Shown here: positions 3,912 to 19,987 of the stretch, piece after piece
Layout of the letters: each line of letters starts with the position of its first letter
Position numbering within the stretch: position 1 is the first letter of the stretch
Assembly: GCA_041662205.1 (NCBI GenBank)
Contig: JBAZSZ010000001.1
Location: 295,978-359,977 of the forward strand
DNA from: Minisyncoccota bacterium
GTDB taxonomy: Bacteria; Patescibacteriota; Minisyncoccia; Phycocordibacterales; UBA9973
Direction of reading: 5' to 3'
DNA length: 64,000 nucleotides
Position numbers and translations under genes: made by a program
The notes under the pieces: model-generated
Database searches by the model: none
What the model was told of the DNA's origin: nothing
The model's input: the letters and a program-made list of their open reading frames with translations, nothing else

Positions 3912-5012
3912 TTAGATCCCCTCTTTTTTGAGTTCTTCTATGAGGGTACGAGAAGAGCGGGAAAGTTTTGACGGAAGTTTGATGTTGAGTTTGATTAACA
4001 GATCCCCTCTTTTATTTTTTCCTGCAGGCACTCCTTTGCCACGAACACGAAGAATTTCATTAATAGAAACTCCCTCTGGAATCGTCACTTCAATTTCTCC
4101 GTCTAAAGTTTGAATGGGATATTTCACTCCCAATAAAGCGTCAGAAAGCTTCAAATTTAGATTCATTACCAAGTCATTGCCTTCACGCTTAAACACTGGG
4201 TGCGGGGCAACATTTATTTTTATATAAAGATCTCCTGTTGTTCCTTTAGAAACTGCCTCACCATAACCCGTCATGCGGATCATCTCACCATCACGTATGC
4301 CTGCTGGAATCACAATAGAGACCTCTTCTTCACGGCGAAGGACTCCTTTACCTTTGCATTTTTCACAAATTTCTTTTGGTACTTCACCCGCACCCAGACA
4401 AACTTCACAAAGTTTTGTACTAGCAATATTTCCAAAAATTGTTCTTTTTGATTCACGAATTTTTCCTTGACCATTGCAATGCTTACAGGTTTCCATTTTA
4501 GTCCCGACTTTTGCACCAGAGCCTCCACATGTCTGACAAGTGGAAGTTTTAGTAATTAAAACTTTTCTATTTACGCCAAAAATGGAATCTGCAAAAGAAA
4601 TTTGAATCTCAGTAGAAATATCTCGGCCTCGGCGCACCTCTTGCCTTCCTCCACCCATTCCACCTCCAAAGAAATCACTAAAAATATCATTCAGGTCAAA
4701 TTCTGCAGAACCATTTTGAAAACCTCCAAAACCTTGAGAGAAATCGAATCCTCCAAAACCTCCTTGCCTTGGGTCACCGTAGCCTCCTTGTTGTCCCATA
4801 TTTTCAAAACCTGATCCATATTGATCGTATTTTGAACGTTTGGCGTCATCAGAAAGCACTTGATAAGCTTCATTTGCTTGCTTGAATTTTGTTTCATTAC
4901 CACCCTTTTTATCGGGATGATATTTTTGCGCCAACTTATAAAAAGCCTTCTTAATTTCATCTTTGGAGGCAGTTTTTTCAACACCTAAAATGTTATAATA
5001 GTCTTTATTCAT
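3912..5012 (-). CDS. dnaJ: Chaperone DnaJ (J-domain, G/F-rich linker, 4x CxxCxGxG zinc-finger, C-terminal domain)
   Basis: [12 protein letters not shown]-domain; repeated CxxCxGxG motifs. Confidence 0.95.
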
Positions 5013-5027
5013 AAGGTTATTTTGCTA

Positions 5028-6545
5028 TTATATCATAGGTTCAGCCTCTTGTGAAGTCTTAGTTTTTGTTTTTAGATTTTCTTCTACTGCCTCGCCGGAA
5101 CCTTCTGTATCGACGGATTCTCCACTTACCTTTTTTCCTTTATTTTTTCCTTCAATAATCGCTTTTTCTTCTGCACTTCGAATAATGGTGGCTTCTTCTT
5201 CAGCAATAAGTTTCGCTGCATCACCTTTTGGTATTGAATATTTTCTGCGAGAAGCTGCTATGATCTCTTCTCTATAAGATGGATGAGTAGGTGGTAACAC
5301 CCGTAGAGTCTCCGCAGAAAAAGGATCATAAGATTCTCCATCAATGGTCATTTTGATATAAAATTCTGTAACTGCTAGATTGATCATATCTTTCACATCA
5401 AAGAGTGGAGCAAATTCCGGCTTCATTTTGACGGCATCCTCACCACCAATACGAAAAGTGATAACACTCCCGACATTACCCAGGACTGCTTGATGAACTT
5501 TTGGTAAAATCTGTCCGACATACTGATGCGCGATAGTTAAATTAAGCCCGTATTTACGAGCCTCAGATAAAATATTTTCAAAAGTTTGGGTAACGACGTT
5601 TTGAAACTCATCAACGTATAAATAAAAATCTTTACGTTCTCTTTCTGGTATAGCCGCACGTTCCATACCCGCTTGTTTTATTTTTGTTAAAAACATCGAA
5701 CCGAGAAAAGAAGAATTCTCCTCACCTAGTCGGCCTTTAGAAAGATTGATAAAGATTATTTTTTCTTGATTCATTAATTCACTAATATCAATTTTATTTT
5801 GTCTTTGGCCGAAAATATTTCGAAGCAATGGATCAGAAAGAAATTGTCCGAGTTTGTTTACAAGCGGGATAATGGCATCCGTATCAAATTTTTCAGACCA
5901 ATCAGCGAATTCAATAGCGAAGAATCTTTTGACCATGTCATCTGTAATATATTCCACCACTTTCTGTCTGTAATTTCTATCCGTCAACATTGAAATCATC
6001 CCACGCATGGTTGCATGAGGGTAATCCAAAAGTGCTAAACAAGTAAAACGAAAAACGTGTTCCAGACGAGGAGTCCAATTCGCTCCGAACTGTTTTTGAA
6101 AAACTTCAATCAACCCTTGAGTCAATTGAAATTTAAACATTGGATCGACATTTGCGAGCGGATTGAAAGATGCGGGAAATTCAGTATCTGGCGGATCTAT
6201 AATACAGACATCTTCAATACGTTCTTTTGGCACATAGTCTAACATTGCGTCTATTAATTCACCGTGTGGATCGATAATGCAAAGCCCATGTCCATACGAA
6301 ATGTCCTGCCGAAGCATTAGTTCCATAAGTTTTGATTTGCCAACTCCAGACTTTCCAACTATATAAAGATGCCTACGACGATCTACTCGTTTAATACCAA
6401 AAACGAATTTTTTCTCTTCTAATGAAGCGACGTAATTAGTTCGCCCGATAAAAGAAACATCATCAGGTTTTACTTTTCCAAAAACAGGTAGCTCTGGTGG
6501 TGGTGGTCCGTATTTTATTATTTGCACTCGATTCGGCTTGGACAT
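5028..6545 (-). CDS. TM-less TraD/VirD4/TrwB-family (type IV coupling protein-like) P-loop ATPase, paralog 1
   Basis: RRRHLYIVGKSGVGKS Walker A preceded by Arg cluster; IIDPHGEL; FNPL; Walker B DFYLYVDEFQN; TraG-D_C-like block LTIAHQYVGQI..GNVGSVITFRIGGEDA; no TM helices; start 15 nt downstream of stop... (stop 15 nt upstream of dnaJ start). Confidence 0.7.
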   Translation of the reverse strand: MSKPNRVQIIKYGPPPPELPVFGKVKPDDVSFIGRTNYVASLEEKKFVFGIKRVDRRRHLYIVGKSGVGKSKLMELMLRQDISYGHGLCIIDPHGELIDAMLDYVPKERIEDVCIIDPPDTEFPASFNPLANVDPMFKFQLTQGLIEVFQKQFGANWTPRLEHVFRFTCLALLDYPHATMRGMISMLTDRNYRQKVVEYITDDMVKRFFAIEFADWSEKFDTDAIIPLVNKLGQFLSDPLLRNIFGQRQNKIDISELMNQEKIIFINLSKGRLGEENSSFLGSMFLTKIKQAGMERAAIPERERKDFYLYVDEFQNVVTQTFENILSEARKYGLNLTIAHQYVGQILPKVHQAVLGNVGSVITFRIGGEDAVKMKPEFAPLFDVKDMINLAVTEFYIKMTIDGESYDPFSAETLRVLPPTHPSYREEIIAASRRKYSIPKGDAAKLIAEEEATIIRSAEEKAIIEGKNKGKKVSGESVDTEGSGEAVEENLKTKTKTSQEAEPMI

Positions 6546-6583
6546 ATATTGATTATTTTAACATAAAATTACCTCACCCCCTA

Positions 6584-6608
6584 CCCCTCTCCTCATAAAG
6601 GAGAGGGG
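6584..6608. repeat. GC-rich hairpin CCCCTCTCC-N7-GGAGAGGGG immediately after stop of Cys-rich protein A, 38 nt upstream of ATPase-1 start
   Basis: 9-bp perfect inverted repeat in AT-rich context, seen directly. Confidence 0.6.
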
Positions 6609-8285
6609 TTAATATACCTCTTGCTGATAACACTTCTCGCAGTAGACAATCTCCGGCCTTTCTGGAGCAAAATTAGTGATAATTTTTTTCTGACATTTAG
6701 CACAATTACGATCCCAGAATTTATATGGACCTCGACGAATTACCCGATCTTGATGCCTGCAATAAAAACATTTTCTTGAAATTGGAATATTTATTTTTCG
6801 GTAAAATAAAAGTTCTTGATCTATAACCTTATAATTTCTTTTACAAGAAATACATTTTAAAATTTCACTCGTTATAGAATCCTCCACATCTTTTATGTGG
6901 TCAGGAATATCTTCTGTTTGTAATGTTTCTTTACCTTCTGTCTTTTGAATATCAACTTCCCATCTATAACCTTGCGCGAGAGCTTCTTCTTTTGAAAGGG
7001 GGAAATTTTCTTGAGCCATAGTTTCATTGTAGGCAAAAGGAGCAAGCTCATAGGATATCATTAATCCATATAAATCTAGATCAGTTAATTCTTTTATTAT
7101 TTTTTCCCTTAATCTTTCATACTCTTCTTTAGAATATTGCTTATTTAAAATAAAATATTGTCCATTTTTCAATCCATCACAACCAATACAGTTTTTGCAA
7201 TTCCTATTATAAAATCCATATAAAACATTACTGGAATTCTCTACTGCATAAGAACCAATAATATTATTCCCATACCCAGAAGCTACTACTTCGAGCAACT
7301 GTTCAGAGTTTATCCCATGACCAATTGTACCGATAGAATCTTTTATATGCTTTGACGAGTGAGTATGATGACAGTCTTCCCCATTGTTTATCTCAAAAGA
7401 TTTTTGAACATTTTTACACGAAAAAAGATAATCTCCCGTAGAATTTACAGTTTTTATATTATTATTTTCTCGCATTGGAAAATTTAAAATAAATTTCTCA
7501 AATTCTTTTTTAAATTCCTCTAATTTCTTATAAGATCCTAAAATATCACTCACTTTTTTAGTGTACTCATCTGCCCCCATCGGCTTATTTAAGAAATAGT
7601 GAGATTTATTATTCAAATTAACACAACCAAAACAATTTAAAACATTTCTACAATTAAAGACAAAACAAGAATCTACTGAACTGTTTATATTTTGACCATA
7701 AAGAATCCCAGAAGAATGTTGAATATTTATAGATTCGTAGCATCTTTCTACTTTTATTCCAAAATACAAATCACTAGAATCCTTGACATCTATTGCTCCT
7801 CTAGAATAAAGCACTTCCTCGGCTGGTCCAGTGTTGAAAACAAGATAACAATTCTTGCATCCACCAGCCATATTGATATACTCGCTATTTATGTTTGGAC
7901 CTGGACCAATAGAAATATAGGTAGTAATTTTAGGAACTTTTAATAAGAGCTCTTTATAGTGTTCTAAAAAAGATCGATTCTCATCAAAATCCATAGCATA
8001 ATCTCTCGCTTCCCATTTTTCAGAATAAAAACATTTTTCACAATAAATAACATAAGGGGATTTTGGATTATATATCGAAATAACATTTTTTTCACAGAGA
8101 GCGCATTTTCGTCCTGAATATAAACTCATCTCATTTCTAAATAAAGCGCGCATTATAAAACGACAATCTGGGCATATCTTTGGATTTGGTACCTTCATCT
8201 TTTCATAAAATCCAAGCTCGTCAGAGGAAAATGAAAAATCTTGTTTGCATTTTTTACAGTTTTTTATTTCTTTTATATTTTCCAT
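6609..8285 (-). CDS. Cys-rich multi-zinc-ribbon protein, paralog A (unknown function)
   Basis: 558 aa, about 40 Cys; N-terminal CxxC..FYxKxxVPxPxxCPxCR..RNExxLY..C module repeated near C-terminus; internal CxxCxxCxGC..NLxNK..NKQYSKEEY repeats; tail PERPEIVYCEKCYQQEVY; no signal peptide. Confidence 0.8.
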   Translation of the reverse strand: MENIKEIKNCKKCKQDFSFSSDELGFYEKMKVPNPKICPDCRFIMRALFRNEMSLYSGRKCALCEKNVISIYNPKSPYVIYCEKCFYSEKWEARDYAMDFDENRSFLEHYKELLLKVPKITTYISIGPGPNINSEYINMAGGCKNCYLVFNTGPAEEVLYSRGAIDVKDSSDLYFGIKVERCYESINIQHSSGILYGQNINSSVDSCFVFNCRNVLNCFGCVNLNNKSHYFLNKPMGADEYTKKVSDILGSYKKLEEFKKEFEKFILNFPMRENNNIKTVNSTGDYLFSCKNVQKSFEINNGEDCHHTHSSKHIKDSIGTIGHGINSEQLLEVVASGYGNNIIGSYAVENSSNVLYGFYNRNCKNCIGCDGLKNGQYFILNKQYSKEEYERLREKIIKELTDLDLYGLMISYELAPFAYNETMAQENFPLSKEEALAQGYRWEVDIQKTEGKETLQTEDIPDHIKDVEDSITSEILKCISCKRNYKVIDQELLFYRKINIPISRKCFYCRHQDRVIRRGPYKFWDRNCAKCQKKIITNFAPERPEIVYCEKCYQQEVY

Positions 8286-8313
8286 ATTAAAATACTTTAG
8301 TTAAGTAAAGTAA

Positions 8314-10065
8314 CTAGTATACTTCTTGCTGGTAACACTTCTCACAATACACTATCTCTGGTCGGTCAGGTGCATACGAAGTTTCAAATTCAACTTCACA
8401 TTTTTCATTGCCGTGAAAATGGTTCTCTTTGTCACACATGCAAGATCTATGCCAAATTTTCATAGGATTACGCATTTTTAGTCTATTTTCGTGACGACAC
8501 AAAAAACACAATCTGGGTAAAGGTACTCCGAGTTTTCGATATAAATTTAATTCATCTATAGTTATTTTATATGCTCCTCTGCAACAATTACTGGATTTTT
8601 CTTTATTATCACATCCAATAATTTCCTTCGTGATGGAATCTGTTACATCATCCAAACTAGACGGAAGGTCTTTAGCTTCTATTGTTGTTTGATACTCATT
8701 TACTTTTTTTTCACGCCATCGATAACCCATTTTGATTGCCTGCTCTTTGGAAAGAGGAAAATAATCTTGCGCCTGAGTTTCATTATAACAAAAAGTAGAA
8801 AGTTCACTAGGAAAAAATTCTCCATATTTATAGACAATTCCCCTCTTGTCCACATAAGGCACTTCATTCATCTGTTGTTCAATTTTTGGAATTAATTTTT
8901 CATATTCTTCTTTGGAATATTGTTTATTTAGAATACAATATTTCTTGTTTCGCACACCAATACAACCAAATAAATTTGAGCTTCCATGACAATTAAAAGA
9001 ATATTCAATATCATTTGAGCCATAAATCACACTACCAAAAAGATTACGAGAACCCCCTATTCCCGTATCAAAAACTTCATAAAGCATTTCGCCTTCCCCT
9101 ACTCCAGGACCAGAATCATAAGCATCTTTAAGACTTTTTACTGCCCAGTGTGAAAATTTTGCATCCTCTATGTCTCCAGTTGCGTCAAAACAAATTTTGC
9201 AATTTTTAGTACCTTCTAAATTATCGCCCGTTGAATCCACAGTCTTTATTTTAACAGCAAACCGATGAAGTGATTTTAGGCATATTTCTCTAAACTTATT
9301 TTTAAGTTCTTGGATAGTTCTATAATCCTTAAAACTATATTCTGCTATTTTTTTGTGATATTCTTCTCTAGAAAATTGCTCATTCCACATACAATATGAT
9401 TTATTGCGTAAATTAGTACAACCAAAACAATCTGTACATCCTACGCAATCATAAAGAAAATATGAATCTACACAACTTTTGCAATTTAGAGAATATAATA
9501 AATGATAGCTATCCGAGCAAAGCACGTCTTCATAACAAAGTTCAGAACGATTAACAACGTATAAATCTGCAGAATCTTTTGTTCCTGTAATTCTGTTTGC
9601 ATATAAAGTTCTTTCTATTCTCCAAGAACCGGAACACATATAGCTATCCTTACTAGCTTCCGCAACATTACAATAATCACTGTTTGTATCTTTTATATTT
9701 GAAAGAGATTGCAGAGGAATATTGTCTCTCAAATTTTTCCATTGTTCAAAAAAAGGATTTAAAAAATCATATTCTTTACCATACGAAAGTGGATCCCAGC
9801 CATCACCCCACCAAGCATCAGAACAATATACTGTAAGTTTTTCTTCTGGAGGTAAAAAAGAAATAAGCATTTCATTGTGTCCTGGCGCATCGCATTTTCT
9901 TTTAAATAAAGACATCTCATTTCGCCAAGTTAGACGCCGAATAGTTCTACACTCCGGACAAAAAGTCGGTGGAAGAACTTTTATCTTTTCATAAAAGTTA
10001 AAATCTTCCGGCTCTATAATAAAATCTTGTTTGCAGTTCTGACAGATCTTAGTTTCTGAATTCAT
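8314..10065 (-). CDS. Cys-rich multi-zinc-ribbon protein, paralog B
   Basis: 583 aa; same architecture as A; closest to paralog C; start 1 nt after ATPase-2 stop. Confidence 0.8.
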   Translation of the reverse strand: MNSETKICQNCKQDFIIEPEDFNFYEKIKVLPPTFCPECRTIRRLTWRNEMSLFKRKCDAPGHNEMLISFLPPEEKLTVYCSDAWWGDGWDPLSYGKEYDFLNPFFEQWKNLRDNIPLQSLSNIKDTNSDYCNVAEASKDSYMCSGSWRIERTLYANRITGTKDSADLYVVNRSELCYEDVLCSDSYHLLYSLNCKSCVDSYFLYDCVGCTDCFGCTNLRNKSYCMWNEQFSREEYHKKIAEYSFKDYRTIQELKNKFREICLKSLHRFAVKIKTVDSTGDNLEGTKNCKICFDATGDIEDAKFSHWAVKSLKDAYDSGPGVGEGEMLYEVFDTGIGGSRNLFGSVIYGSNDIEYSFNCHGSSNLFGCIGVRNKKYCILNKQYSKEEYEKLIPKIEQQMNEVPYVDKRGIVYKYGEFFPSELSTFCYNETQAQDYFPLSKEQAIKMGYRWREKKVNEYQTTIEAKDLPSSLDDVTDSITKEIIGCDNKEKSSNCCRGAYKITIDELNLYRKLGVPLPRLCFLCRHENRLKMRNPMKIWHRSCMCDKENHFHGNEKCEVEFETSYAPDRPEIVYCEKCYQQEVY

Positions 10066-10066
10066 A

Positions 10067-12028
10067 TTATTCTAAAATTTTTCTTAAAACATCTTCCGGC
10101 ACTTCTGGTGGATTAGATTTTTGAGACACAGGTGCAGGTGTGGGAGTAATATCCTTTTCTATTTTTCCCGATGTGGCAGTGGCAATCAAATCCTTTAATT
10201 TATTCATATCTTCTGCTGTAGCAGCACGATCATTTTTCATAGGAGGAATAAATTTTTTATTATCTTCATTTTTCTTTTTTAGGGAATCAAGAGAGATTGG
10301 TGCTGGCACAGTTTTATCTTCTACTACTATTTTATTTAAAACATTTTTCAATGACGAAGTATCTCTATTTATTGGATAAGTGGATTTAGGTCTGACAGGG
10401 GCTGGGACTTGTTTTGTGAAAACTTTCTTAAAGGTCTTTATTATTCCTGCAGGTTTTGTTGATACTGGAGCTTGTTGAAATTCGATACCCAAATCAGCTA
10501 ATGGTTTATAAAATTTAGATTCATCATATTTAATTTGATCTTGTCCTCTTTTTTCCACCTTAACTTCTCCAGATTTTATTTTTGCAATACATTCCTTACA
10601 ATAAGCAGCTCGGCCCGGCTCAGGCTTAAAAGGCACAGTTTTTTCTAATTTACAAAGTGAACAAATTACAGGGAATTTTTCTATATTTCCATTTGTAGTA
10701 AAAGTGTCATTACCTAATGACATTCCACTCCATTCATTGATTTCTCGCTCTACCGCCTCGCGGGACCTACAGTAAAGATCACGAGAAGATTTTATTACTT
10801 CTTCTTCCACTTTTTTATCACCGGACTTTACCATGGGCGGCAAGGTCTTAGCAGAAAATGGACGGGAGGTTACACCGTCAATCATTAATTTTAAATAAAT
10901 TTTATAGTTTGGTAAATTTACGATATCAGAAGGAGTAAATTCTGGATCAAATTCTTTTTCTAAAAAATCTGCGTCATCGGAACCAACACGAAAAACTATC
11001 ATTGTACCTACGTTACCAAAGACAGCATCACGCACTGCTGAGCTTTTATCCACCACTAGCTGCGCAGTGTATTGGTGGGCCACGGTTAGATTAAGCCTGT
11101 ACTTTCTAGCCTCAGATAAAATACCAGCAAAAGCATCTGTCACAAAGTTTTGAAATTCGTCCACATATAAATAAAAGTCTTTGCGATGTTCTTCGGGGAT
11201 ACGTACACGCTCCATGGCAGCCAGTTGAATCTTGGTAATGATCATTCCTCCCAAAAGACCAGAGTTGTCTTCACCGATACGCCCCTTAGAAACATTCACG
11301 AGAAAAATCTTCCCGTCATTCATAATATCAAAAATATTAATCGTGCTTTTAGATTGACCCACAACATTACGAATAATAGAGGTAGAAAGAAATTGTCCAA
11401 CCTTATTTTGAATCGGTGCGATAGCTTCATTACGAAATTTATCCTGCCAGGCTTCATACTCATGGACCCAAAAAGCCTTAATCACTGGGTCTTTCAAATT
11501 GGCAATTATTTTCTGACGATAATCTTTGTCCACCAGCATACGAGGAATTCCTAAAAGTGTCGTCCCTGGAGTATCGAGTAATGCTAAAATACAATTATTT
11601 AAAATATATTCCATTCGCGCACTCCAAGCATTCGCCCAGATTTTAGTAAAAATACCCATCAGTCCAGAAGCTACTAGATGTTTATATTGTGGATCAATTA
11701 ATTCTAAAACATTAAAACCGATATGGTAGTCTACATCTGCTGGATTAAAATAAACTACATCCTTCATTCGCTCTGGTGGAATAGCGGAAAGAACTCCTTC
11801 GACGAGTTCTCCATGCGGATCAACCACACAAACTCCCTCACCATTTTTAATGTTCTGAATAATCATATTGAACATCAGGACAGATTTACCTGAACCAGAT
11901 TTCCCTAGAATATAAACATGCTGACGTCTGTCTTTGCGCTTGATACCAAAAAGTTGATTTTTATCACGAAAAGTTGTTAGCCCAAGATAAGTAATGTCTT
12001 TTTTTATAGGCAATTCTGGAAGTTCCAT
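10067..12028 (-). CDS. TM-less TraD/VirD4-family P-loop ATPase, paralog 2, with C-terminal CxxC-x17-CxxC zinc ribbon and K/P-rich tail
   Basis: RRQHVYILGKSGSGKS, VVDPHGEL, FNVL, DFYLYVDEFQN, LTVAHQYTAQL; C-terminal ICSLCK..PFKPEPGRAAYCKEC resembles the PxRPxxxYCxKC tail of the Cys-rich paralogs. Confidence 0.7.
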   Translation of the reverse strand: MELPELPIKKDITYLGLTTFRDKNQLFGIKRKDRRQHVYILGKSGSGKSVLMFNMIIQNIKNGEGVCVVDPHGELVEGVLSAIPPERMKDVVYFNPADVDYHIGFNVLELIDPQYKHLVASGLMGIFTKIWANAWSARMEYILNNCILALLDTPGTTLLGIPRMLVDKDYRQKIIANLKDPVIKAFWVHEYEAWQDKFRNEAIAPIQNKVGQFLSTSIIRNVVGQSKSTINIFDIMNDGKIFLVNVSKGRIGEDNSGLLGGMIITKIQLAAMERVRIPEEHRKDFYLYVDEFQNFVTDAFAGILSEARKYRLNLTVAHQYTAQLVVDKSSAVRDAVFGNVGTMIVFRVGSDDADFLEKEFDPEFTPSDIVNLPNYKIYLKLMIDGVTSRPFSAKTLPPMVKSGDKKVEEEVIKSSRDLYCRSREAVEREINEWSGMSLGNDTFTTNGNIEKFPVICSLCKLEKTVPFKPEPGRAAYCKECIAKIKSGEVKVEKRGQDQIKYDESKFYKPLADLGIEFQQAPVSTKPAGIIKTFKKVFTKQVPAPVRPKSTYPINRDTSSLKNVLNKIVVEDKTVPAPISLDSLKKKNEDNKKFIPPMKNDRAATAEDMNKLKDLIATATSGKIEKDITPTPAPVSQKSNPPEVPEDVLRKILE

Positions 12029-12061
12029 ATACTATACATTTTACAACAAAATTACCAAAAC

Positions 12062-12086
12062 AAAAAGCCCTATAAGGGGCTTTTTG
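12062..12086. terminator. Hairpin AGCCC-TATAAG-GGGCT flanked by A-run and T-run (bidirectional intrinsic terminator) between secreted-protein gene and ATPase-2
   Basis: seen in sequence. Confidence 0.5.
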
Positions 12087-12107
12087 TTTTGGTAAAAGAA
12101 AATTATA

Positions 12108-13322
12108 TTATAACCAAGTAAAATTAGTAGCACTATTATTTAATATCTGCACGGTTAATTTTCCAATCGGATTGGTTCCAAAAGTATTATTAAATTTAAC
12201 TTCCAATGTTGCTACTGTTCCAACTACTGTTATAATTTGAGCATCAATTCCTGCTCCTGCTCCTACACCAGCTGTTGCTTCACCGCTGTCAGTACAAGAT
12301 CCACTCACTGTTCCAGCATTATTTATAAACGCACATACAAAAATTCCACCATGGGATCCAGCGTTTACACCATCAGTTACAGTATAAGTAAATGACATAT
12401 GAACGATAGCTCCAGTATTGGCAGTAGGTAAATTTATTGAATAAATTTGTGTATTTACATTATCCGGCATAGAATAAACTTTATTATGAATCATAAATTT
12501 ATGAATTAGCGCTTGGTCTGCAGTACCACTAGAAGTTCCCATAACTGTCGTAGCTAGGTTTATGTCTGCTGGTTGCGCATTGCCAGTAGATAACCCAGCA
12601 TGCAAATGCAAAGCTCCTCCTGTCTTATTTGTTGATAAAACAGTTGCTCCACCTGCTTGAAGAGTCAAGTTATTTCCAGTAGTATCTGCGATGGTATTTC
12701 TTTCCATCCAAATTGTTCTATCAGCTGTGCCCCCAAGAGAAAATAAATTAGTAGGAGATGTTGTTCCAAAACCAACATTACCATCTTTGAAATAAATACC
12801 GGCAGTTGAAGAAGGACCAATCCAAGATTCAGCCAAAGTAGTTAGAGGGTTAATGAGAGAAAAAGAATTGGTAGCATCAAGACGAGTAATATTCGTGGTA
12901 TCAGATAGATCAGTAGAAGCAATACTAATGTCAGCTGATCCATCAAAAGATACTCCAGCAATATTGCGAGCATTTGTTAGTGTGGCAGCGCTACCTGTTA
13001 TACTTCCGACAATTGGATTAGTAACTTCAAAATCTGTAAACCATCCTTTGGTAAGTCTAGACCCAGTTGTTCCGATAGAACCAGTAGATGTAATATCTTT
13101 AGTACCCATATCCAAGGCACCACCCAACACAACTTTTCCTGTAGTTAAATTATTTCCTATTGTAATGTTTGAAGTTGCACTACTGTTTAATGATAAAGAA
13201 CCATTATTTGTAAGACCTGCAGCATCAAATATAAGATTAGCTTCAGCGGGTAAAACTCCGATTCCAATAACAAAAATCAAAATAACAAAACTTAAATTAA
13301 AATATTCAAATTTATTTTTCAT
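12108..13322 (-). CDS. Secreted G/S/T/N-rich low-complexity protein (possible surface/adhesin-like beta-rich protein)
   Basis: N-terminal signal peptide (FVILIFVIGIGVLPAEA); 404 aa dominated by T, G, S, N, A; no recognisable catalytic motif. Confidence 0.6.
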   Translation of the reverse strand: MKNKFEYFNLSFVILIFVIGIGVLPAEANLIFDAAGLTNNGSLSLNSSATSNITIGNNLTTGKVVLGGALDMGTKDITSTGSIGTTGSRLTKGWFTDFEVTNPIVGSITGSAATLTNARNIAGVSFDGSADISIASTDLSDTTNITRLDATNSFSLINPLTTLAESWIGPSSTAGIYFKDGNVGFGTTSPTNLFSLGGTADRTIWMERNTIADTTGNNLTLQAGGATVLSTNKTGGALHLHAGLSTGNAQPADINLATTVMGTSSGTADQALIHKFMIHNKVYSMPDNVNTQIYSINLPTANTGAIVHMSFTYTVTDGVNAGSHGGIFVCAFINNAGTVSGSCTDSGEATAGVGAGAGIDAQIITVVGTVATLEVKFNNTFGTNPIGKLTVQILNNSATNFTWL

Positions 13323-13409
13323 TTTTTTATTTTAATTAATAATAGATAACAAAAATTATACCATATTTTAATAAAAAAATACTAATTATGGTTTTATTTC
13401 CATCATATT

Positions 13410-13431
13410 AAAAGCCCCTTAAGGGGCTTTT
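13410..13431 (-). terminator. Intrinsic terminator after dnaK (AAAAGCCCCTTAAGGGGCTTTT)
   Basis: perfect 7-bp GC stem with flanking A/T runs, ends 9 nt after dnaK stop codon. Confidence 0.7.
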
Positions 13432-13439
13432 AATATGAT

Positions 13440-15356
13440 TTATGCTTTTGATTCTCCGTCTTCAGAAGGTTTTTCTTTAAACTCTGCATCATGGACTTCA
13501 GGTGGTTGTTCTTCGGGAGTCGAAGGTCCTGTACTTGCTGAAGCATCAGTTCCCCCAGCTTTCGCCATCGCCTCCCCTATCTTAGACATTTCGGTAGAGA
13601 GCTCTTCGGTAGCTTTTTTGATCGCTTCTCCATCGGTGCCATCTTTTACCCCTCTCAAAGCAGTTATTTTTGCGTTTACTTCATCTTTTAATTCTACAGG
13701 TATTTTTTCTTCATTCTCTTTAAGAGCTTTTTCGGCAGTATAGATGATCATCTCTGCGGTATTTTTTACTTCTGCATTTTCTTTTTTCTTTTTATCTTCC
13801 TCTGCGTGAAGCTCTGCATCAGCTTGCATTTTTTTAATGTCTTCTTCTTTGAGCCCAGAACTTGCTTCAATTTTAATGGATTGGGTTTTTCCTGAAGCTT
13901 TGTCTTTAGCAGAAACATTTAGAATTCCATTCACATCTACATCAAAAGCAACTTCAATTTGAGGCATTCCGCGAGGTGCTGGTGGCACTCCATCTAAAAT
14001 AAATCTGCCGAGAGATTTATTATCGGACGCCATCGGACGCTCTCCCTGCACAATGTGTATTTCGACAGAAGTCTGATTATCGGCAGCCGTAGAAAATGTT
14101 TGAGATTTACTAGAAGGAATAGTGGTATTTCTTTCAATCAATTTTGTAGCCACTCCTCCCAAAGTCTCAATACCTAATGAAAGCGGTATCACATCGAGAA
14201 GTAATACATCCCGCACATCACCTTGCAACACACCAGCCTGAACGGCTGCACCGAGCGCCACAACTTCATCAGGGTTAATGGACATATTTGGAGCCTTACC
14301 GAAAAGATCTTGCACAGCAGATACAATAGCTGGCATTCTCGTCTGACCACCTACCATGATAATTTCATTTATTTCATTTATTTTGAATGGAGATGCGTCC
14401 AAAGCTCTCTTGGTAATCTTAATAGACAGATCAATATATTCTTTCGCTAGAGATTCCAACATTGCTCGAGACATTTTAAGTAAAAGATGTTTTGGTCCAG
14501 AGCTGTCTGAAGTTATGAATGGTATGTTGATCTCTGTTTCAGTAGTTGTAGAAAGTTCATGCTTAGCTTTTTCAGCAGCTTCTTTTAATCTTTGGTGCGC
14601 TAGAGGATCTTTTATAACATCAATGCCAGACTCTTTTTTATACTCTTCAGCAATCCAAGAAATAATTTTTCTATCAATGTCACCTCCACCCATATGACTG
14701 TCTCCATCGGTAGATTTTACTTCTATCACATCGTCACCTATTTCCAATACAGACACATCAAAGGTTCCTCCACCGAAATCGTATACAACAATCTTTTCAT
14801 TTTTCTTTTTATTAAAACCATAAGCAAGTGCTGCAGCTGTCGGCTCATTGATGATGCGTTTTACGTCAAGGCCAGCAATTGCTCCCGCGTCTTTGGTCGC
14901 TTTTCTTTGCGCATCATTAAAATATGCTGGCACGGTTATTATTGCTTCAGTAATCTTTTCTCCGAGCTTCGCCTCAACATCAGCCTTAATTTTTTGTAAA
15001 ACCATTGCAGAAATTTCTTCCGGTCGATAAAATTTATCTGACATTTTTATTTTTACTCCACCTCCGTCTCCTGTTTCAATTTTAAATGAAGCAGTCTCAC
15101 GATCTTTTTGCACTTCTGGATCATCAAACCTATGCCCCATATAACGCTTTATTTCAGCAATAGTATTTTCTGGATTTGTAACCGCTTGTCTTTTTGCCAG
15201 AAGGCCGACAATACGATCTCCATTTTTTGCAGTCGCCACGACAGAAGGCGTCGTGCGATTACCTTCCACATTCTCCACAATTTTTGGTGCACCACCCTCA
15301 ATGATAGCGACTGCTGAATTTGTTGTACCTAAATCTATACCTATTATTTTACTCAT
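13440..15356 (-). CDS. dnaK: Chaperone DnaK (Hsp70)
   Basis: [10 protein letters not shown].. N-terminus, [11 protein letters not shown]..., 638 aa full length. Confidence 0.97.
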
Positions 15357-15443
15357 ATATTTTATATGTTATTTATAATTTAACTTATATTTCGCGACCA
15401 CTAAAAACTTGTATAAATAGAGTATATATGATAGCGTATTAGT

Positions 15444-15950
15444 ATGTCAAGTTATTCCAAAAAAATACTTAAAAAGTTAACTGAAAGACCTGCAATTTCG
15501 ACAAAAGATCTAAAAGAAAAAGATGTAAGAACAACTTATGCCATTTCTCGTGCCTTAAAAAATCTAATAGAAAGCAAATGTGCTGAAATTCATGAATCAG
15601 GAAGACAAGATTATGTAAAAATTACTCCGCTTGGAAAAAATAAATTAAATACCTTGCTCTTAGAAAATGACGAAGCATTAGTCCCGCAAAATTGGGATGG
15701 ATTTTGGCGAATTATTTTACTAGACCTGCCAGAAAACAGAAAGGCTGAACGTGAATCTCTACGTTATCTTCTTAAAAAAGCTGGCTTCGTTTGTTTAAAA
15801 AATTCTGCGTGGATTTCCCCTTTCCCTTTTGAACATTTATTTACAAATATAAAGCGTGACCTAGACCTCACCACAGAAATGATGATCATCGTCACAGAAA
15901 ATATTGACGAAGAAAGTAAAAAAGTTTTATTTGAAACTTTCGGAAAATAA
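15444..15950 (+). CDS. PaaX-family-like transcriptional regulator (N-terminal wHTH + C-terminal Cas2-fold PaaX_C-like domain), divergent from dnaK
   Basis: NWDGFWRIILLDLPENRKAERESLRYLLKKAGFVCLKNSAWISP matches PaaX WDGKW..R..LR..L...GFG.L...VW.SP block. Confidence 0.6.
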   Translation: MSSYSKKILKKLTERPAISTKDLKEKDVRTTYAISRALKNLIESKCAEIHESGRQDYVKITPLGKNKLNTLLLENDEALVPQNWDGFWRIILLDLPENRKAERESLRYLLKKAGFVCLKNSAWISPFPFEHLFTNIKRDLDLTTEMMIIVTENIDEESKKVLFETFGK

Positions 15951-16013
15951 AAAATCTTTTAATAAACTATCCACAGGCTTACCTGCCTACGGCAGTGCCA
16001 AAGGCGACCAGGG

Positions 16014-17756
16014 CTAGTAAATCTCCTGTTGATAGCATTTTTCACAATAAACTATCTCTGGCCTCTCAGGCGCATAACTCGTTTCAAATTCTATTTCACA
16101 TTTACTTTCGTGAGTATGATTTTCTTTTTCACACATACAAGTTCTTTTCCATAATTTCCATGCTGGTAATTGATAAAACCTTTCATAATATCTACAATTG
16201 GGACACAAAATCGGGAGCGGTATTTTATTTTTCTTATAAAAATCAAGTTCAAAATTTGCTAAACGAAAAGCGATATTGCATTGATGAATACAACTTCCCT
16301 TGTGTGCACATTCTAATACTTCTCCTAAAATTTTATCATCTACTTCATCTATTGTATCGGGAATATTTTCTACAGGTATGGTAATCTGGAAATTCTTTAC
16401 ATCTTGCTCTAACCATCGATAACCGTTTTTTTCTACTTCTGTTTTAGTCATTGGATTAATTTCTTGGGCAAAAGTTTCGTTGTAAGCAAAAGGACAGACT
16501 TCTATAGGAAAAAATTCTCCATATTTATAAACTCTACCCGCCTTGTCCACAAAAGGTATATTTTCCATTTGTTTTATAATTTCTAAGCGAAGTTTATCAA
16601 ATTCATCTTTTGAACAAATTTTATTGAAAATTACATTTTCTTTATTTCTTATTCCAATACAACCAAATAAATTTGAGCTATTAATACAAGAATCAGTATA
16701 CTCCACATTGCTGACAGAACTAAAAGCGGAATGAGAAAATTTCACATTATAATCATTTAGAGATCCAGTAACATATTCATACATCAATTCTGACTTCATT
16801 GCCTGAGAAGAATCCATGGAATCCTTAAAAGACTCCAATACTCTATAACAGTATTTCAAATTTTCCGCATTGTAAACATCAAAACAATTTTGACAATTTT
16901 TTACATTTGAAAGATTATTTCCAGTAGCGTTTACTGAACGTACAATGTTAGTAAAACGATAAATAGATTTTTCTTTTATTTCTTTAAATTCCTTAAGAAA
17001 AACTTCCAGAGAATCCCTGCTTGATAAATTTAATCTTTCTTTTTCTTTTAAATATTCTTCTTTTGAATACTGCTTATTGCGAATATAAAATTCTTTATTA
17101 CGTAAATTGTAAGAAAGTAAGCAATTGCTACAGTTTACACAATCAACTAAAAAATAAGAATCTAAACAATTTTTTGAAAGTAATAAATACTGACAATTGT
17201 AATTTTTCTCACTTTGAATATTCTCATATAAATTTTGCCCTTCGTTAATATTTAAGCAATCAATAATGTCCGTAGACTTATCTACATTCTTTGAATAAAA
17301 AACATTTTCTGAACCCTTAACGACCGAAAATGATAAATAAACATTCTTAGACTCACCCGCATAATTTGTATAATCAGAGTTAATTACATTTCTATGCCAC
17401 AAAGCTAATCGAGGCACGACATTCATTAATTTATTAAATTGCTCAAAAAATGGTCTAGAAAAATCATAATCTCTACTAAAAGAAGTGGCTTCCCAACCAT
17501 CTCCAAACCAACATTCTCGACAATATACAGGGAAAGGCACGGATTCATGGTACATTGAAATAATGTTTTTCTTACACAAATCACATTTACGTTTATATAA
17601 AGTTCTTTCATTACGCCAAGCCATTCTCCTTTGCAACCTACACCAAGGACAAAAAGTAGGTGCGGGAACTTGTATCTTTTTGTAATAATTAAAATCTTCT
17701 GGCTCTATTTTAAAGTCTTTTTTGCAATTCTGGCAATTTTTAGTTTCACTTTTCAT
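16014..17756 (-). CDS. Cys-rich multi-zinc-ribbon protein, paralog C
   Basis: 580 aa; N-terminus CQNCKKDFKIEPEDFNYYKKIQVPAPTFCPWCR..WRNERTLYKRKC; tail FETSYAPERPEIVYCEKCYQQEIY; start 1 nt after paralog D stop. Confidence 0.8.
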   Translation of the reverse strand: MKSETKNCQNCKKDFKIEPEDFNYYKKIQVPAPTFCPWCRLQRRMAWRNERTLYKRKCDLCKKNIISMYHESVPFPVYCRECWFGDGWEATSFSRDYDFSRPFFEQFNKLMNVVPRLALWHRNVINSDYTNYAGESKNVYLSFSVVKGSENVFYSKNVDKSTDIIDCLNINEGQNLYENIQSEKNYNCQYLLLSKNCLDSYFLVDCVNCSNCLLSYNLRNKEFYIRNKQYSKEEYLKEKERLNLSSRDSLEVFLKEFKEIKEKSIYRFTNIVRSVNATGNNLSNVKNCQNCFDVYNAENLKYCYRVLESFKDSMDSSQAMKSELMYEYVTGSLNDYNVKFSHSAFSSVSNVEYTDSCINSSNLFGCIGIRNKENVIFNKICSKDEFDKLRLEIIKQMENIPFVDKAGRVYKYGEFFPIEVCPFAYNETFAQEINPMTKTEVEKNGYRWLEQDVKNFQITIPVENIPDTIDEVDDKILGEVLECAHKGSCIHQCNIAFRLANFELDFYKKNKIPLPILCPNCRYYERFYQLPAWKLWKRTCMCEKENHTHESKCEIEFETSYAPERPEIVYCEKCYQQEIY

Positions 17757-17757
17757 A

Positions 17758-19434
17758 TCAAGCTATATTTTGTTTATAACATTCTTCGCAAGCAATTTTC
17801 TGGTATCCCCATTCCGGCAAATAATATGCATCGACATCCTTTTTACAATAAAAACATTTATATTGATGTGCTTGCAAGATAGTCAAATATTTCAAACTAT
17901 TTTTTATTCGCACATCAAAATGATAACGTGGAAGTGGGATATTATTTTCTTTGTAAAAAGAAAGTTCATTTTGGGCAATATTGAAACGCCAGCCCGTTTC
18001 AGGGCAAATCAGTGCCTGAGTGATGATAGTATTCGGAACGTCTTTGATATCGTCAGGCAACTCCGCTGTAGGCATGCCGTCTACATGACTCTCTGTGACA
18101 TCCTCCCAATAACCGCCAAATTTTAAAATATCTTCTTTTTTAGTTTCTGGAAAATACAGAAAAGCAGTAGAAAAATTAAAAGGTCCCAAGCTCATGGAAT
18201 AAGGTAAAAATTTCCCATATTCTCCACTCTTTTTCATATCAGAAATTATCTTATTTTTTAAAGTTTCATATTCTTCTTTACTATACTGTTTGTTTAAAAT
18301 ACAATATTTCTTTTTCCCCAAACCCACACAACCAAAACAATATTCACATTCAAGACATAGATCTAAATATTCAGAATATCTTGAGGACGACCAACTGGAA
18401 TATTTGAGAGCATAACCACTTGGTTGGCAGGAACTACAATTGCCTGATACTTCTAAATACTGACAACCATTTATGTCGACGCAAGACTCTAATCCTGTGC
18501 CTCTGATACAGTTAGAGCAATCCTTAGAATCAGAGATTGTGAAACAATTTTGGCAATTTTTACAATCAATTAAGTAATCGCCAATGGAATTGAAAACTTT
18601 TAAATTGAAGTTCGGTCTATGCGCCACCTCATTTTTAATTATTTCTTTAAAATGTTTTTTAAGTTTTTGAATAGAATCATAAGAACCAAGATTAAATAAT
18701 TGGATTTTTTTATCATATTCCTCCTTAGAATACTGCACATTTTCTATACAATAGGATTTATTGCGAAGATTCCAACACATAAAACAATTTTGACAGTTTC
18801 GGCAATCATATAAAAAACTTGATTGTATGCAATCGCGGGAATGTTTCGAATAAAAAAGTTTGTAGGAATGATGACATTCAGAAGAATCAAAACATTTTTC
18901 ACTATTATAACAAACAACCACATCAATAGAATTTTTTACCCCTATATTCCTATATGAATAAAATAAATTTTCGCAATCTACCATTGAACGAGAAAGATAA
19001 CTATCCTTACAATTCCAAACATCATCACACCAATCACAACCTGTACTTTTAATACCATCTTGATGCGGACGAGGAACTTTCTCTTGAAGATTTTGTAATT
19101 GCTCAAAAAATAATTTTTTTTCGTCATAGTCTGCCCCATAATCCATCGCGTCCCACTTGTCGCTATACCACTCATTTAAAGTGTAAATCGGATATCTAGT
19201 CTTCTCTGGTAAAACGGTAATTAAACTTTCTCCAGAGAGATCTGATTTACCCCTGCGAAATTTTCCAAACATCCAAAAAGATAAATGTAATTTTACTCGA
19301 CAAAAAAAACAAAGTGTCGGTAATTCAATATCAACTTTTTTATATAAAGATAATTCTTCTTCTGTAATTAAGAAGTCTCGTTTGCAGTGTTCACAAACTC
19401 TAGTTTGCAGGTCCTTTGTATTCATATACATCAA
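17758..19434 (-). CDS. Cys-rich multi-zinc-ribbon protein, paralog D (most divergent)
   Basis: 558 aa; CEHCKRDF..LSLYKKVDIELPTLCFFCR; CRNCQNCFMCWNLRNKSYC..YSKEEY repeats; start overlaps grpE 3' end by about 25-35 nt. Confidence 0.75.
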   Translation of the reverse strand: MMYMNTKDLQTRVCEHCKRDFLITEEELSLYKKVDIELPTLCFFCRVKLHLSFWMFGKFRRGKSDLSGESLITVLPEKTRYPIYTLNEWYSDKWDAMDYGADYDEKKLFFEQLQNLQEKVPRPHQDGIKSTGCDWCDDVWNCKDSYLSRSMVDCENLFYSYRNIGVKNSIDVVVCYNSEKCFDSSECHHSYKLFYSKHSRDCIQSSFLYDCRNCQNCFMCWNLRNKSYCIENVQYSKEEYDKKIQLFNLGSYDSIQKLKKHFKEIIKNEVAHRPNFNLKVFNSIGDYLIDCKNCQNCFTISDSKDCSNCIRGTGLESCVDINGCQYLEVSGNCSSCQPSGYALKYSSWSSSRYSEYLDLCLECEYCFGCVGLGKKKYCILNKQYSKEEYETLKNKIISDMKKSGEYGKFLPYSMSLGPFNFSTAFLYFPETKKEDILKFGGYWEDVTESHVDGMPTAELPDDIKDVPNTIITQALICPETGWRFNIAQNELSFYKENNIPLPRYHFDVRIKNSLKYLTILQAHQYKCFYCKKDVDAYYLPEWGYQKIACEECYKQNIA

Positions 19435-19987
19435 CCCTCGCTGCGCGAATTACGCGCTCGCCTAGTTTGTAGCCTTTTTGAATTACATTTGCAACTTTGT
19501 GTTCTAACTCTTTTTTGTCTGTTTCTACCACATCAATAGATTGATGAATATTTGGATCAAAACTCTCTCCTACCTCGCCCATGGATTTAACCCCATATTC
19601 CTCAAAAATTGTATTCATCTGCGCGTAAATATATTCCACACCCTTTCGCCAATTTTCATCCACTTTCTCCCAAGCTTCCTTGTTCGCAAAAGCCATATTA
19701 AAACTATCAATCACAGAAAGGAAGCGAGTCAAAATCCTCTCTCGCATTGCCTCTGAAAAAAGTGCTTTTCTATCTTCTTCTTGTTTACGGTAATTCACAA
19801 AGTCCGCTCGCTCTTTTTGCCAACCAGTCAAATATTCTTCCTTTTCGGCCTTGCACGCCTTCAGATCGGCTCTAAATTTCTTTAAAGTTTTCTTTAAATC
19901 CTCTTCTCCATCTTCATTGAATTCAAACTCTAAAACTTCAGAAGTGTCTTCTTTTGGTTCTTCTTTTTTTTCTTCTTCGTCTGACAT
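19400..19987 (-). CDS. grpE: Nucleotide exchange factor GrpE
   Basis: acidic N-terminus, coiled coil, C-terminal VIQKGYKLGERVIRAARV GrpE signature. Confidence 0.9.
   Translation of the reverse strand: MSDEEEKKEEPKEDTSEVLEFEFNEDGEEDLKKTLKKFRADLKACKAEKEEYLTGWQKERADFVNYRKQEEDRKALFSEAMRERILTRFLSVIDSFNMAFANKEAWEKVDENWRKGVEYIYAQMNTIFEEYGVKSMGEVGESFDPNIHQSIDVVETDKKELEHKVANVIQKGYKLGERVIRAARVDVYEYKGPAN

Follow-up and report, generated by a model that had tools for sequence, protein, structure and literature searches.

Coupling proteins of the VirD4/TrwB/TraD type combine a P-loop nucleoside triphosphatase (NTPase) with an all-alpha domain. The C-terminal extensions of TraD, DotL, and FtsK recruit a substrate or an adaptor, and the zinc-binding domain of ClpX, which dimerizes, functions in adaptor and substrate recognition. 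In Patescibacteria, 5,713 VirD4-like genes have been counted in 2,918 genomes, i.e., approximately two per genome, of which only 148 lie near virB4, and exaptation of these genes has been raised as a possibility (PMC12102498). Here, we describe a soluble VirD4/TrwB-like P-loop ATPase, named ATPase-2, encoded in a 64-kb stretch of the genome of a Minisyncoccota bacterium (contig JBAZSZ010000001.1; G+C content 34%; the whole of the analyzed stretch is called the window below), together with the four-cysteine domain, called the ribbon, that follows the ATPase core. The identification of this ribbon as a canonical zinc-binding mini-domain of the PF23477/TIGR04272 family, situated approximately 20 residues past the NTPase core, is well supported.

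The open reading frame (ORF) of ATPase-2 occupies positions 10067–12028 on the minus strand and encodes 653 amino acids (aa), comprising the core, the ribbon, and a long tail. The core (aa 1–430; 10739–12028, minus strand) contains the Walker A motif GKSGSGKS, starting at aa 42, and the Walker B motif FYLYVDEF. Its likeness to VirD4, TrwB, and TraD lies in the P-loop NTPase and the all-alpha domain, as seen from the matches to PF10412 (40.6 bits; cut-off 20.5) and PF02534 (31.4 bits; cut-off 20.1); PF01935 and PF12696 also score above their cut-offs, and the best sequence match in PDB is TrwB. At the same time, ATPase-2 remains far below the NCBIfam cut-offs for TraD/VirD4 equivalogs and subfamilies, the best score being 49 bits against 366 required for TIGR03743. 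Its C-terminal extension, potentially involved in partner recruitment, carries conserved terminal motifs, as is the case in TraD and DotL.

Unlike VirD4, TrwB, and TraD, ATPase-2 has no N-terminal membrane anchor: the maximum Kyte-Doolittle hydropathy over 19 residues is 1.13 in the entire protein and 0.88 within the first 60 residues. Neither VirB4 nor a relaxase was found in the window among the neighbors of ATPase-2 and the ten largest other ORFs. A further difference is that ATPase-2 is paired with a paralog, ATPase-1 (505 aa; 5028–6545, minus strand), within a grpE-dnaK-dnaJ operon that belongs to a housekeeping region. The two proteins are 46% identical over aa 4–420. The presence of an ATPase pair at this locus agrees with the reported average of about two VirD4-like genes per Patescibacteria genome (PMC12102498), and proteins of the ATPase-2 type are conserved, usually beside a ribbon-less paralog, in Paceibacteria and related Patescibacteria lineages. 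A PADLOC search yielded only generic mad8/HerA P-loop matches for the ATPases and none for the neighboring Cys-rich proteins, and thus no evidence of a defence system.

The ribbon of ATPase-2

The ribbon spans aa 452–483 (FPVICSLCKLEKTVPFKPEPGRAAYCKECIAK, FPVICSLCK...CKECIAK; 10580–10675, minus strand). Its two CxxC pairs are separated by exactly 17 residues, as described in a first-pass annotation of this DNA, which had, however, placed the ribbon at 10067–10400; that segment encodes aa 543–653 and contains only the tail. The ribbon does not form the C-terminus, since another 170 residues come after it. The domain passes the curated cut-offs of both Pfam PF23477 (zf_Tbcl_2, "probable treble clef zinc finger"; 34.4 bits, cut-off 27) and NCBIfam TIGR04272 (CxxC-x17-CxxC domain; 36.9 bits, cut-off 36). 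PF23477 is carried by 120/120 ATPase-2 orthologs among the matches listed (at least 73% identity; more than 8,000 matches in total), and many orthologs have already been named "CxxC-x17-CxxC domain-containing protein" by NCBI and JGI.

We considered 80 genome loci around ATPase homologs (48–79% identity) from Nomurabacteria-like genomes, Sungbacteria, Staskawiczbacteria, Moraniibacteria, Doudnabacteria, and other lineages, annotated with our own hidden Markov models (HMMs). Several loci carry two ATPase paralogs, and hence counts of ATPases differ from counts of loci. Across these loci and the window, the ribbon profile HMM recognizes 70 ATPases, and in 69/70 of them the CxxC...CxxC pattern is present, so that the motif is not a chance occurrence. 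ATPase-1 lacks the ribbon, as previously noted, and has no cysteine at all after its core; the same is true of the other 56 ribbon-less ATPases of the related loci.

The domain also exists in a free-standing form. A search with a profile built from the ribbons of 12 distant ATPases recovers 52 free-standing PF23477 proteins that are 41–76 aa long (E-values 4e-15 to 7e-11) and occur, e.g., in Bathyarchaeia and Thermoplasmata and have RGG-like or basic flanks. Two members of the family from Methanosarcina mazei bind zinc, as measured by inductively coupled plasma mass spectrometry (PMC12704099). The proteins from Methanosarcina, Bathyarchaeia, Thermoplasmata, and other taxa share with the ATPase-2 domain the cysteine spacing, the core C..CG...VPFKP...RPVYC..C, and a predicted treble clef. 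The ATPase-2 domain differs from them by its fusion behind an ATPase core and by the 170-residue tail, and the copies found in the Cys-rich proteins differ by being divergent and scoring below the thresholds.

In the AlphaFold2 (AF2) model of the ribbon, two strands (aa 452–455 and 462–465) are followed by a helix (aa 478–485). With a predicted local distance difference test score (pLDDT) of 74–81, this is the most confident part of the model. The same order is seen in the modeled ribbon copies of the Cys-rich protein CysB, with strands at 524–527 and 534–537 and a helix at 550–556 in the C-terminal copy, and strands at 56–60 and 67–70 and a helix at 83–86 in the N-proximal one. Because the helix begins at the second CxxC, the predicted topology is that of a treble clef and not of a classical zinc ribbon. 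By this prediction, the initial designation "zinc ribbon" fits the four-cysteine domain but not a classical two-hairpin fold. The full-length AF2 model of ATPase-2, based on 61 close orthologs, is poor (pLDDT 48, predicted template modeling score 0.27) and is informative only for the ribbon and a few helices. When PDB sequences were searched with the ribbon profile, no match was significant; the best, a partial knuckle in S27e, had an E-value of 0.031. No papers on PF23477, TIGR04272, or PF13451 were found in the literature.

The ribbon is followed by a conserved segment (aa 484–520, IKSGEVKVEK...KPLADLGIEF; 10469–10579, minus strand) that is kept in orthologs and, in part (LGIEF), also in distant lineages. 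Beyond it lies a K/P-rich and, judging by composition and low pLDDT, mostly disordered tail (aa 521–653; 10070–10468, minus strand). Counted from aa 484, 27 of the 170 residues are K and 17 are P, in line with the earlier description of this region as K/P-rich. Within the tail, AF2 assigns higher pLDDT only to the helices at 605–619 and 645–652. These correspond to a conserved short helix (aa 600–619; 10172–10231, minus strand) and a conserved terminal helix, EVPEDVLRKILE (10070–10105, minus strand). In the ribbon ATPases of the related loci (L001–L079), the last 8–12 residues are kept within lineages and differ between them: the terminal motif is EVPEDVLRKILE in Nomurabacteria-like genomes, K/I-x-PGE-T/A-VKF (...PGETVKF) in Sungbacteria, Staskawiczbacteria, and others, and ...VRQLIxESL... 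in Moraniibacteria. From their sequences, these termini look like short docking motifs.

Similarity to the Cys-rich proteins

The proteins encoded next to the ATPases, of approximately 560–600 aa, are built of a beta-solenoid core with treble clefs at either end, and their genes form tandems of 0–8 copies. Three of these proteins, CysA, CysB, and CysC, had been noticed initially; the window encodes a fourth paralog, CysD. The three had been described as sharing YAP(D/E)RPEIVYCEKCY at the extreme C-terminus; this does not hold for CysB, which reads FAP instead of YAP. The tail ribbons are located at aa 536–583 of CysA (8317–8460), aa 524–558 of CysB (6612–6716), and aa 535–580 of CysC (16017–16154), and the tail of CysD is a CxxC-x18-CxxC variant at aa 527–552 (within 17761–17868), all on the minus strand. 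A second copy is present near the N-terminus of CysB (aa 57–90; 8016–8117, minus strand) and CysC (aa 54–87; 17496–17597, minus strand); in CysA and CysD, this copy is degenerate.

CysB contains, in addition, two treble clefs of the PF13451 type (aa 10–41 and 478–509), giving the overall architecture [PF13451-type][PF23477-type]-core-[PF13451-type][PF23477-type]. In hhalign comparisons, the N-terminal copies match the C-terminal ones with probabilities of 98.2% and 97.9%. PF13451 (zf_Tbcl, CxxC-x24-CxxC) is likewise a small four-cysteine predicted treble clef, and it directly precedes each PF23477-type ribbon in the Cys-rich proteins. It is nevertheless a distinct family and is not found in ATPase-2.

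The PF13451-type domains provided controls for the comparison of the ribbons. One profile was built from 112 orthologs of the ATPase, the other from 119 of CysB. The ATPase ribbon aligns with the CysB C-terminal tail with a probability of 92.8% (E-value 4.1e-7, 30 columns) and with the CysB N-proximal ribbon with 89.3% (E-value 2.1e-6), as opposed to 3.5% and 0.5% for the two PF13451-type domains of CysB. The register returned by hhalign for the tail is identical to that of the alignment proposed in the first-pass annotation (VPFKPEPGRAAYCKEC over TNFAPERPEIVYCEKC). When all columns except the four fixed cysteine columns were permuted, none of the 200 shuffled replicates reached the observed score of 31.4 (shuffled, 13.2 +/- 3.7, maximum 25.7). 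The proposed resemblance of the tails is thus borne out by profile-profile comparison, with clean negative controls.

The profile of the free-standing proteins matches the ATPase ribbon with a probability of 99.4% (E-value 1e-21), the CysB tail with 95.9% (E-value 6e-9), and the CysB N-proximal ribbon with 93.6% (E-value 2e-7), compared to 2.9% and 1.0% for the PF13451-type controls. The HMM of these proteins also detects tails of the Cys family in related loci (domain E-values 2e-7 to 8e-5) and that of CysB in the window (independent E-value 3.2e-5). When the ATPase ribbon and the tails of the Cys-rich proteins are matched directly by HMM, the hits are weak (independent E-values 0.019 and 1.2), and the CysB tail falls below the curated cut-offs (PF23477, 20.4 bits against 27; TIGR04272, 16 bits against 36). 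CysA, CysC, and CysD have no PF23477 or TIGR04272 match at E-values up to 0.1, and PF23477 is reached by 2/120 CysB orthologs in the precomputed Pfam annotation of the database. By these profile statistics, the ribbon of ATPase-2 and the tails of the Cys-rich proteins are members of a single family, PF23477/TIGR04272. The ATPase ribbon is much nearer to the free-standing proteins; the Cys-rich tails are divergent members of this family rather than special relatives of the ATPase ribbon.

In the tails of CysA and CysC, the first knuckle is expanded (in CysA, CMCDKENHFHGNEKC): it is replaced by the insertion C-M-C-[DE]-K-E-N-H-x-H-x(3,4)-C, which adds Cys and His ligands and, from its sequence, could perhaps create a further metal site. 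Another locus, L087, has this variant as well (CTCSQESHGHNSPC). The CysA tail is recognized by the combined ribbon HMM with an independent E-value of 2.5e-11. In viral contigs of IMG/VR, the Cys-rich family is nearly absent, with one marginal fragment.

Co-occurrence of ribbon ATPases and Cys-rich genes

The recurring unit in the related loci is a ribbon ATPase adjoining a ribbon-less paralog. The gene order is GrpE-(Cys)n-DnaK-ATPase+ribbon-(Cys)n-ATPase-DnaJ in Nomurabacteria-like genomes and ATPase-(Cys)n-ATPase+ribbon in other lineages, with 0 to 6 copies of the Cys family per ATPase-centered locus. The survey covered approximately 10 kb on each side, and the contingency counts are taken from loci of at least 18 kb. 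Among the 32 such loci with a ribbon ATPase, 19 contain a Cys-rich gene within 10 kb and 13 do not; where the ribbon ATPase is absent, the respective numbers are 1 and 5. Loci L002, L004, L008, L010, L026, and L028 have the arrangement DnaK-ATPase+ribbon-ATPase-DnaJ without any Cys-rich gene. The ribbon is equally conserved in both situations: among close orthologs, its identity to the ribbon of the window is 0.77 with Cys-rich genes in the locus and 0.78 without them. Conversely, in L058 and L047, Cys-rich genes adjoin ribbon-less ATPases only.

The reverse view is given by 35 loci from metagenomes, each spanning 12 kb or more and centered on a gene of the Cys family. An ATPase of this kind is lacking in 20 of them; 8 include one with the ribbon, and the other 7 only one without it. 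The linkage is thus facultative in both directions. Co-variation of the ribbon with Cys-rich neighbors, which the first-pass annotation had proposed as a check, is not upheld by these data, and at the level of loci the ribbon is independent of them. With the ribbon conserved regardless of the neighbors and nearer to the free-standing proteins, nothing points to the two being a dedicated, matched pair.

The Cys family also forms tandem arrays away from the ATPases, with seven full-length genes and a fragment (i.e., up to eight copies) in L165, five genes in L128, and five genes directly after rpoB-rpoC-dnaG-rpoD in L087 (10001–19162). Its copy number shifts fast between close relatives. In the window (3912–19987, minus strand) and in L001–L028, L043, L088, L091–L092, and L119–L120, the ATPase pair and a variable number of Cys-rich genes interrupt the grpE-dnaK-dnaJ operon. 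ATPases are found beside DnaK or DnaJ in other lineages as well (L045, L067, L051).

Possible role of the ribbon

As the best explanation of the whole, to which we assign about an even chance, we propose that a catalogued zinc mini-domain serves as the tethered head by which a soluble VirD4-like motor recognizes a ligand. The ribbon would be a small zinc-stabilized head, flexibly tethered to the C-terminal face of a presumably ring-shaped motor. It would act in concert with the conserved segment behind it and the short tail helices (aa 600–619 and the terminal EVPEDVLRKILE) to recruit the substrate of the motor or an adaptor. We infer this recruiting role by analogy with TraD, DotL, FtsK, and ClpX. 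The best functional analogy, for this model and for the docking model of the first-pass annotation alike, is the N-terminal C4 zinc domain of ClpX, generally known as a four-cysteine domain of the treble-clef type tethered to a ring ATPase. It differs in its N-terminal position, in residing on an AAA+ protein, and in having no sequence relationship to the ATPase-2 ribbon; the ClpX-type zinc domain PF06689 is not among the Pfam matches of ATPase-2 at E-values up to 0.1.

With modest confidence, we favor nucleic acid or a generic partner as the ligand over the neighboring Cys-rich proteins specifically. Two observations guide this choice: the tails of the free-standing members are RGG-like or basic, and the ribbon is preserved unchanged at loci lacking a nearby Cys-rich gene. 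In the Cys-rich proteins, the PF23477 module would then be used independently of the ATPase. A ligand class shared by the ATPase ribbon and the Cys-rich ribbons is possible.

Several observations weigh against the recognition-head model or its preferred ligand. The full-length model is too poor (pLDDT 48) to show where the ribbon sits with respect to the ring. The ATPase-2 ribbon is only mildly basic, with a net charge of +3. We found no experiment or solved structure showing the ligand of any PF23477 domain, and the genomic contexts of the free-standing proteins, on archaeal contigs next to genes for a permease, TsaD, DNA polymerase B, and radical SAM proteins, gave no functional hint. There is also a weak positive trend between the ribbon and Cys-rich genes (odds ratio 7.3; Fisher p = 0.083), confounded by phylogeny, and in genomes without local copies Cys-rich genes may lie elsewhere, which would leave a functional link possible.

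The docking model states that the ATPase-2 ribbon binds the ribbons of the Cys-rich proteins, homotypically or heterotypically, and so couples the motor to its translationally coupled neighbors. It shares the ClpX analogy, and we consider it unlikely. It is weakened by the 13/32 ribbon loci in which the ribbon is equally conserved without Cys-rich genes, by the 20/35 Cys-centered loci without an ATPase, and by the loci L058 and L047, with ribbon-less ATPases only. Moreover, the ATPase ribbon is nearer to the free-standing proteins than to the Cys-rich tails, and it stays fixed while the number of Cys-rich copies varies from 0 to 8.

A purely structural role, in which the ribbon pairs adjacent ATPase-2 subunits or caps the ring and has no external ligand, is likewise unlikely in our estimate, and slightly more so. 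Strong conservation of the ribbon, its position directly after the core, and its being the best-folded part of the C-terminal region would all fit such a role, for which the ClpX zinc domain offers a generally known precedent of dimerizing zinc domains on ring ATPases. Yet ATPase-1 and several lineages (L058, L061, L071, L073, L074, L080) manage without the ribbon, and the existence of free-standing versions of 41–76 aa argues for an autonomous binding module.

A more far-reaching idea, which we regard as a long shot, is that the two soluble VirD4-like ATPases and the expandable Cys-rich family form a Patescibacteria-specific machine, co-expressed with GrpE, DnaK, and DnaJ, in which PF23477 heads join motor and solenoid proteins on a common ligand or on each other. 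If true, this would be a new chaperone-linked translocation or remodeling system derived from a conjugation coupling protein.

Finally, a chance match of unrelated CxxC...CxxC motifs, for which the weak direct HMM cross-matches and the sub-threshold CysB tail might speak, is extremely improbable and is essentially refuted by the hhalign probabilities (92.8% and 95.9%, against 0.5–3.5% for the other CxxC domains of the same proteins), the 0/200 cysteine-anchored shuffles, and the independent small-protein HMM, which matches several tails of the Cys family at 1e-5 to 1e-7.

Gene layout of the locus

On the minus strand of the window, the genes of the locus follow in the order GrpE (19400–19987), CysD (17758–19434; 558 aa, 33% identical to CysB), CysC (16014–17756; 580 aa), DnaK (13440–15356), a hypothetical protein of 404 aa (12108–13322), ATPase-2, CysA (8314–10065; 583 aa), CysB (6609–8285; 558 aa), ATPase-1, and DnaJ (3912–5012). 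Apart from GrpE, DnaK, and DnaJ, the neighbors of ATPase-2 include ribosomal proteins and CysS, and the remainder of the window is of the housekeeping type, its ten largest other ORFs including ClpB, GyrA, BipA, AlaRS, IF-2, and Mur ligases. Since a complete ClpB is encoded at 36164–38896, we rejected the possibility that the ATPase pair substitutes for ClpB in partnering with DnaK.

A single nucleotide separates the stop codon of ATPase-2 (TAA, 10067–10069) from the start codon of CysA (ATG, 10063–10065), a spacing compatible with translational coupling. The same 1-nt spacer occurs between the CysD stop and the CysC start. Counted from its listed TTG start, CysD shares 35 nt with the end of grpE (19400–19434); the true start is probably a downstream ATG (MYMN...).

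On the opposite strand, between the upstream Cys-rich genes and dnaK, there is a gene for a small PaaX-like regulator (PaaX_M/MarR-like; 15444–15950, plus strand), which is found in an equivalent position in at least one other genome (L088, 4921–5439). This regulator might control the operon. A scan for promoters remained at background, with 73 sites against 68 expected. The 404-aa hypothetical protein has a hydrophobic N-terminal segment, a G/T/S/N-rich sequence, and no family match. Its gene is flanked by two long perfect hairpins (12095–12052 on the minus strand, 19 bp, and 13402–13439, 17 bp; region 12052–13439). None of the 80 related genome loci contains this gene, which suggests that it was inserted locally between dnaK and ATPase-2.

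Implications

The ribbon of the ATPase is not new in itself, being a catalogued domain after which the protein has already been named in public annotation. What is modestly new is that a widespread and previously unannotated Cys-rich family of Paceibacteria carries divergent PF23477 copies at both ends. The architecture [PF13451][PF23477]-beta-solenoid-[PF13451][PF23477] is the first partial annotation of this family. Concrete handles for experiments are provided by the ATPase pair, by its frequent location within or next to the dnaK operon, and by the tethered zinc head together with the terminal motifs specific to each lineage. In a wider context, these findings concern the VirD4-like ATPases of Patescibacteria, which number approximately two per genome and are not linked to type IV secretion genes (PMC12102498).

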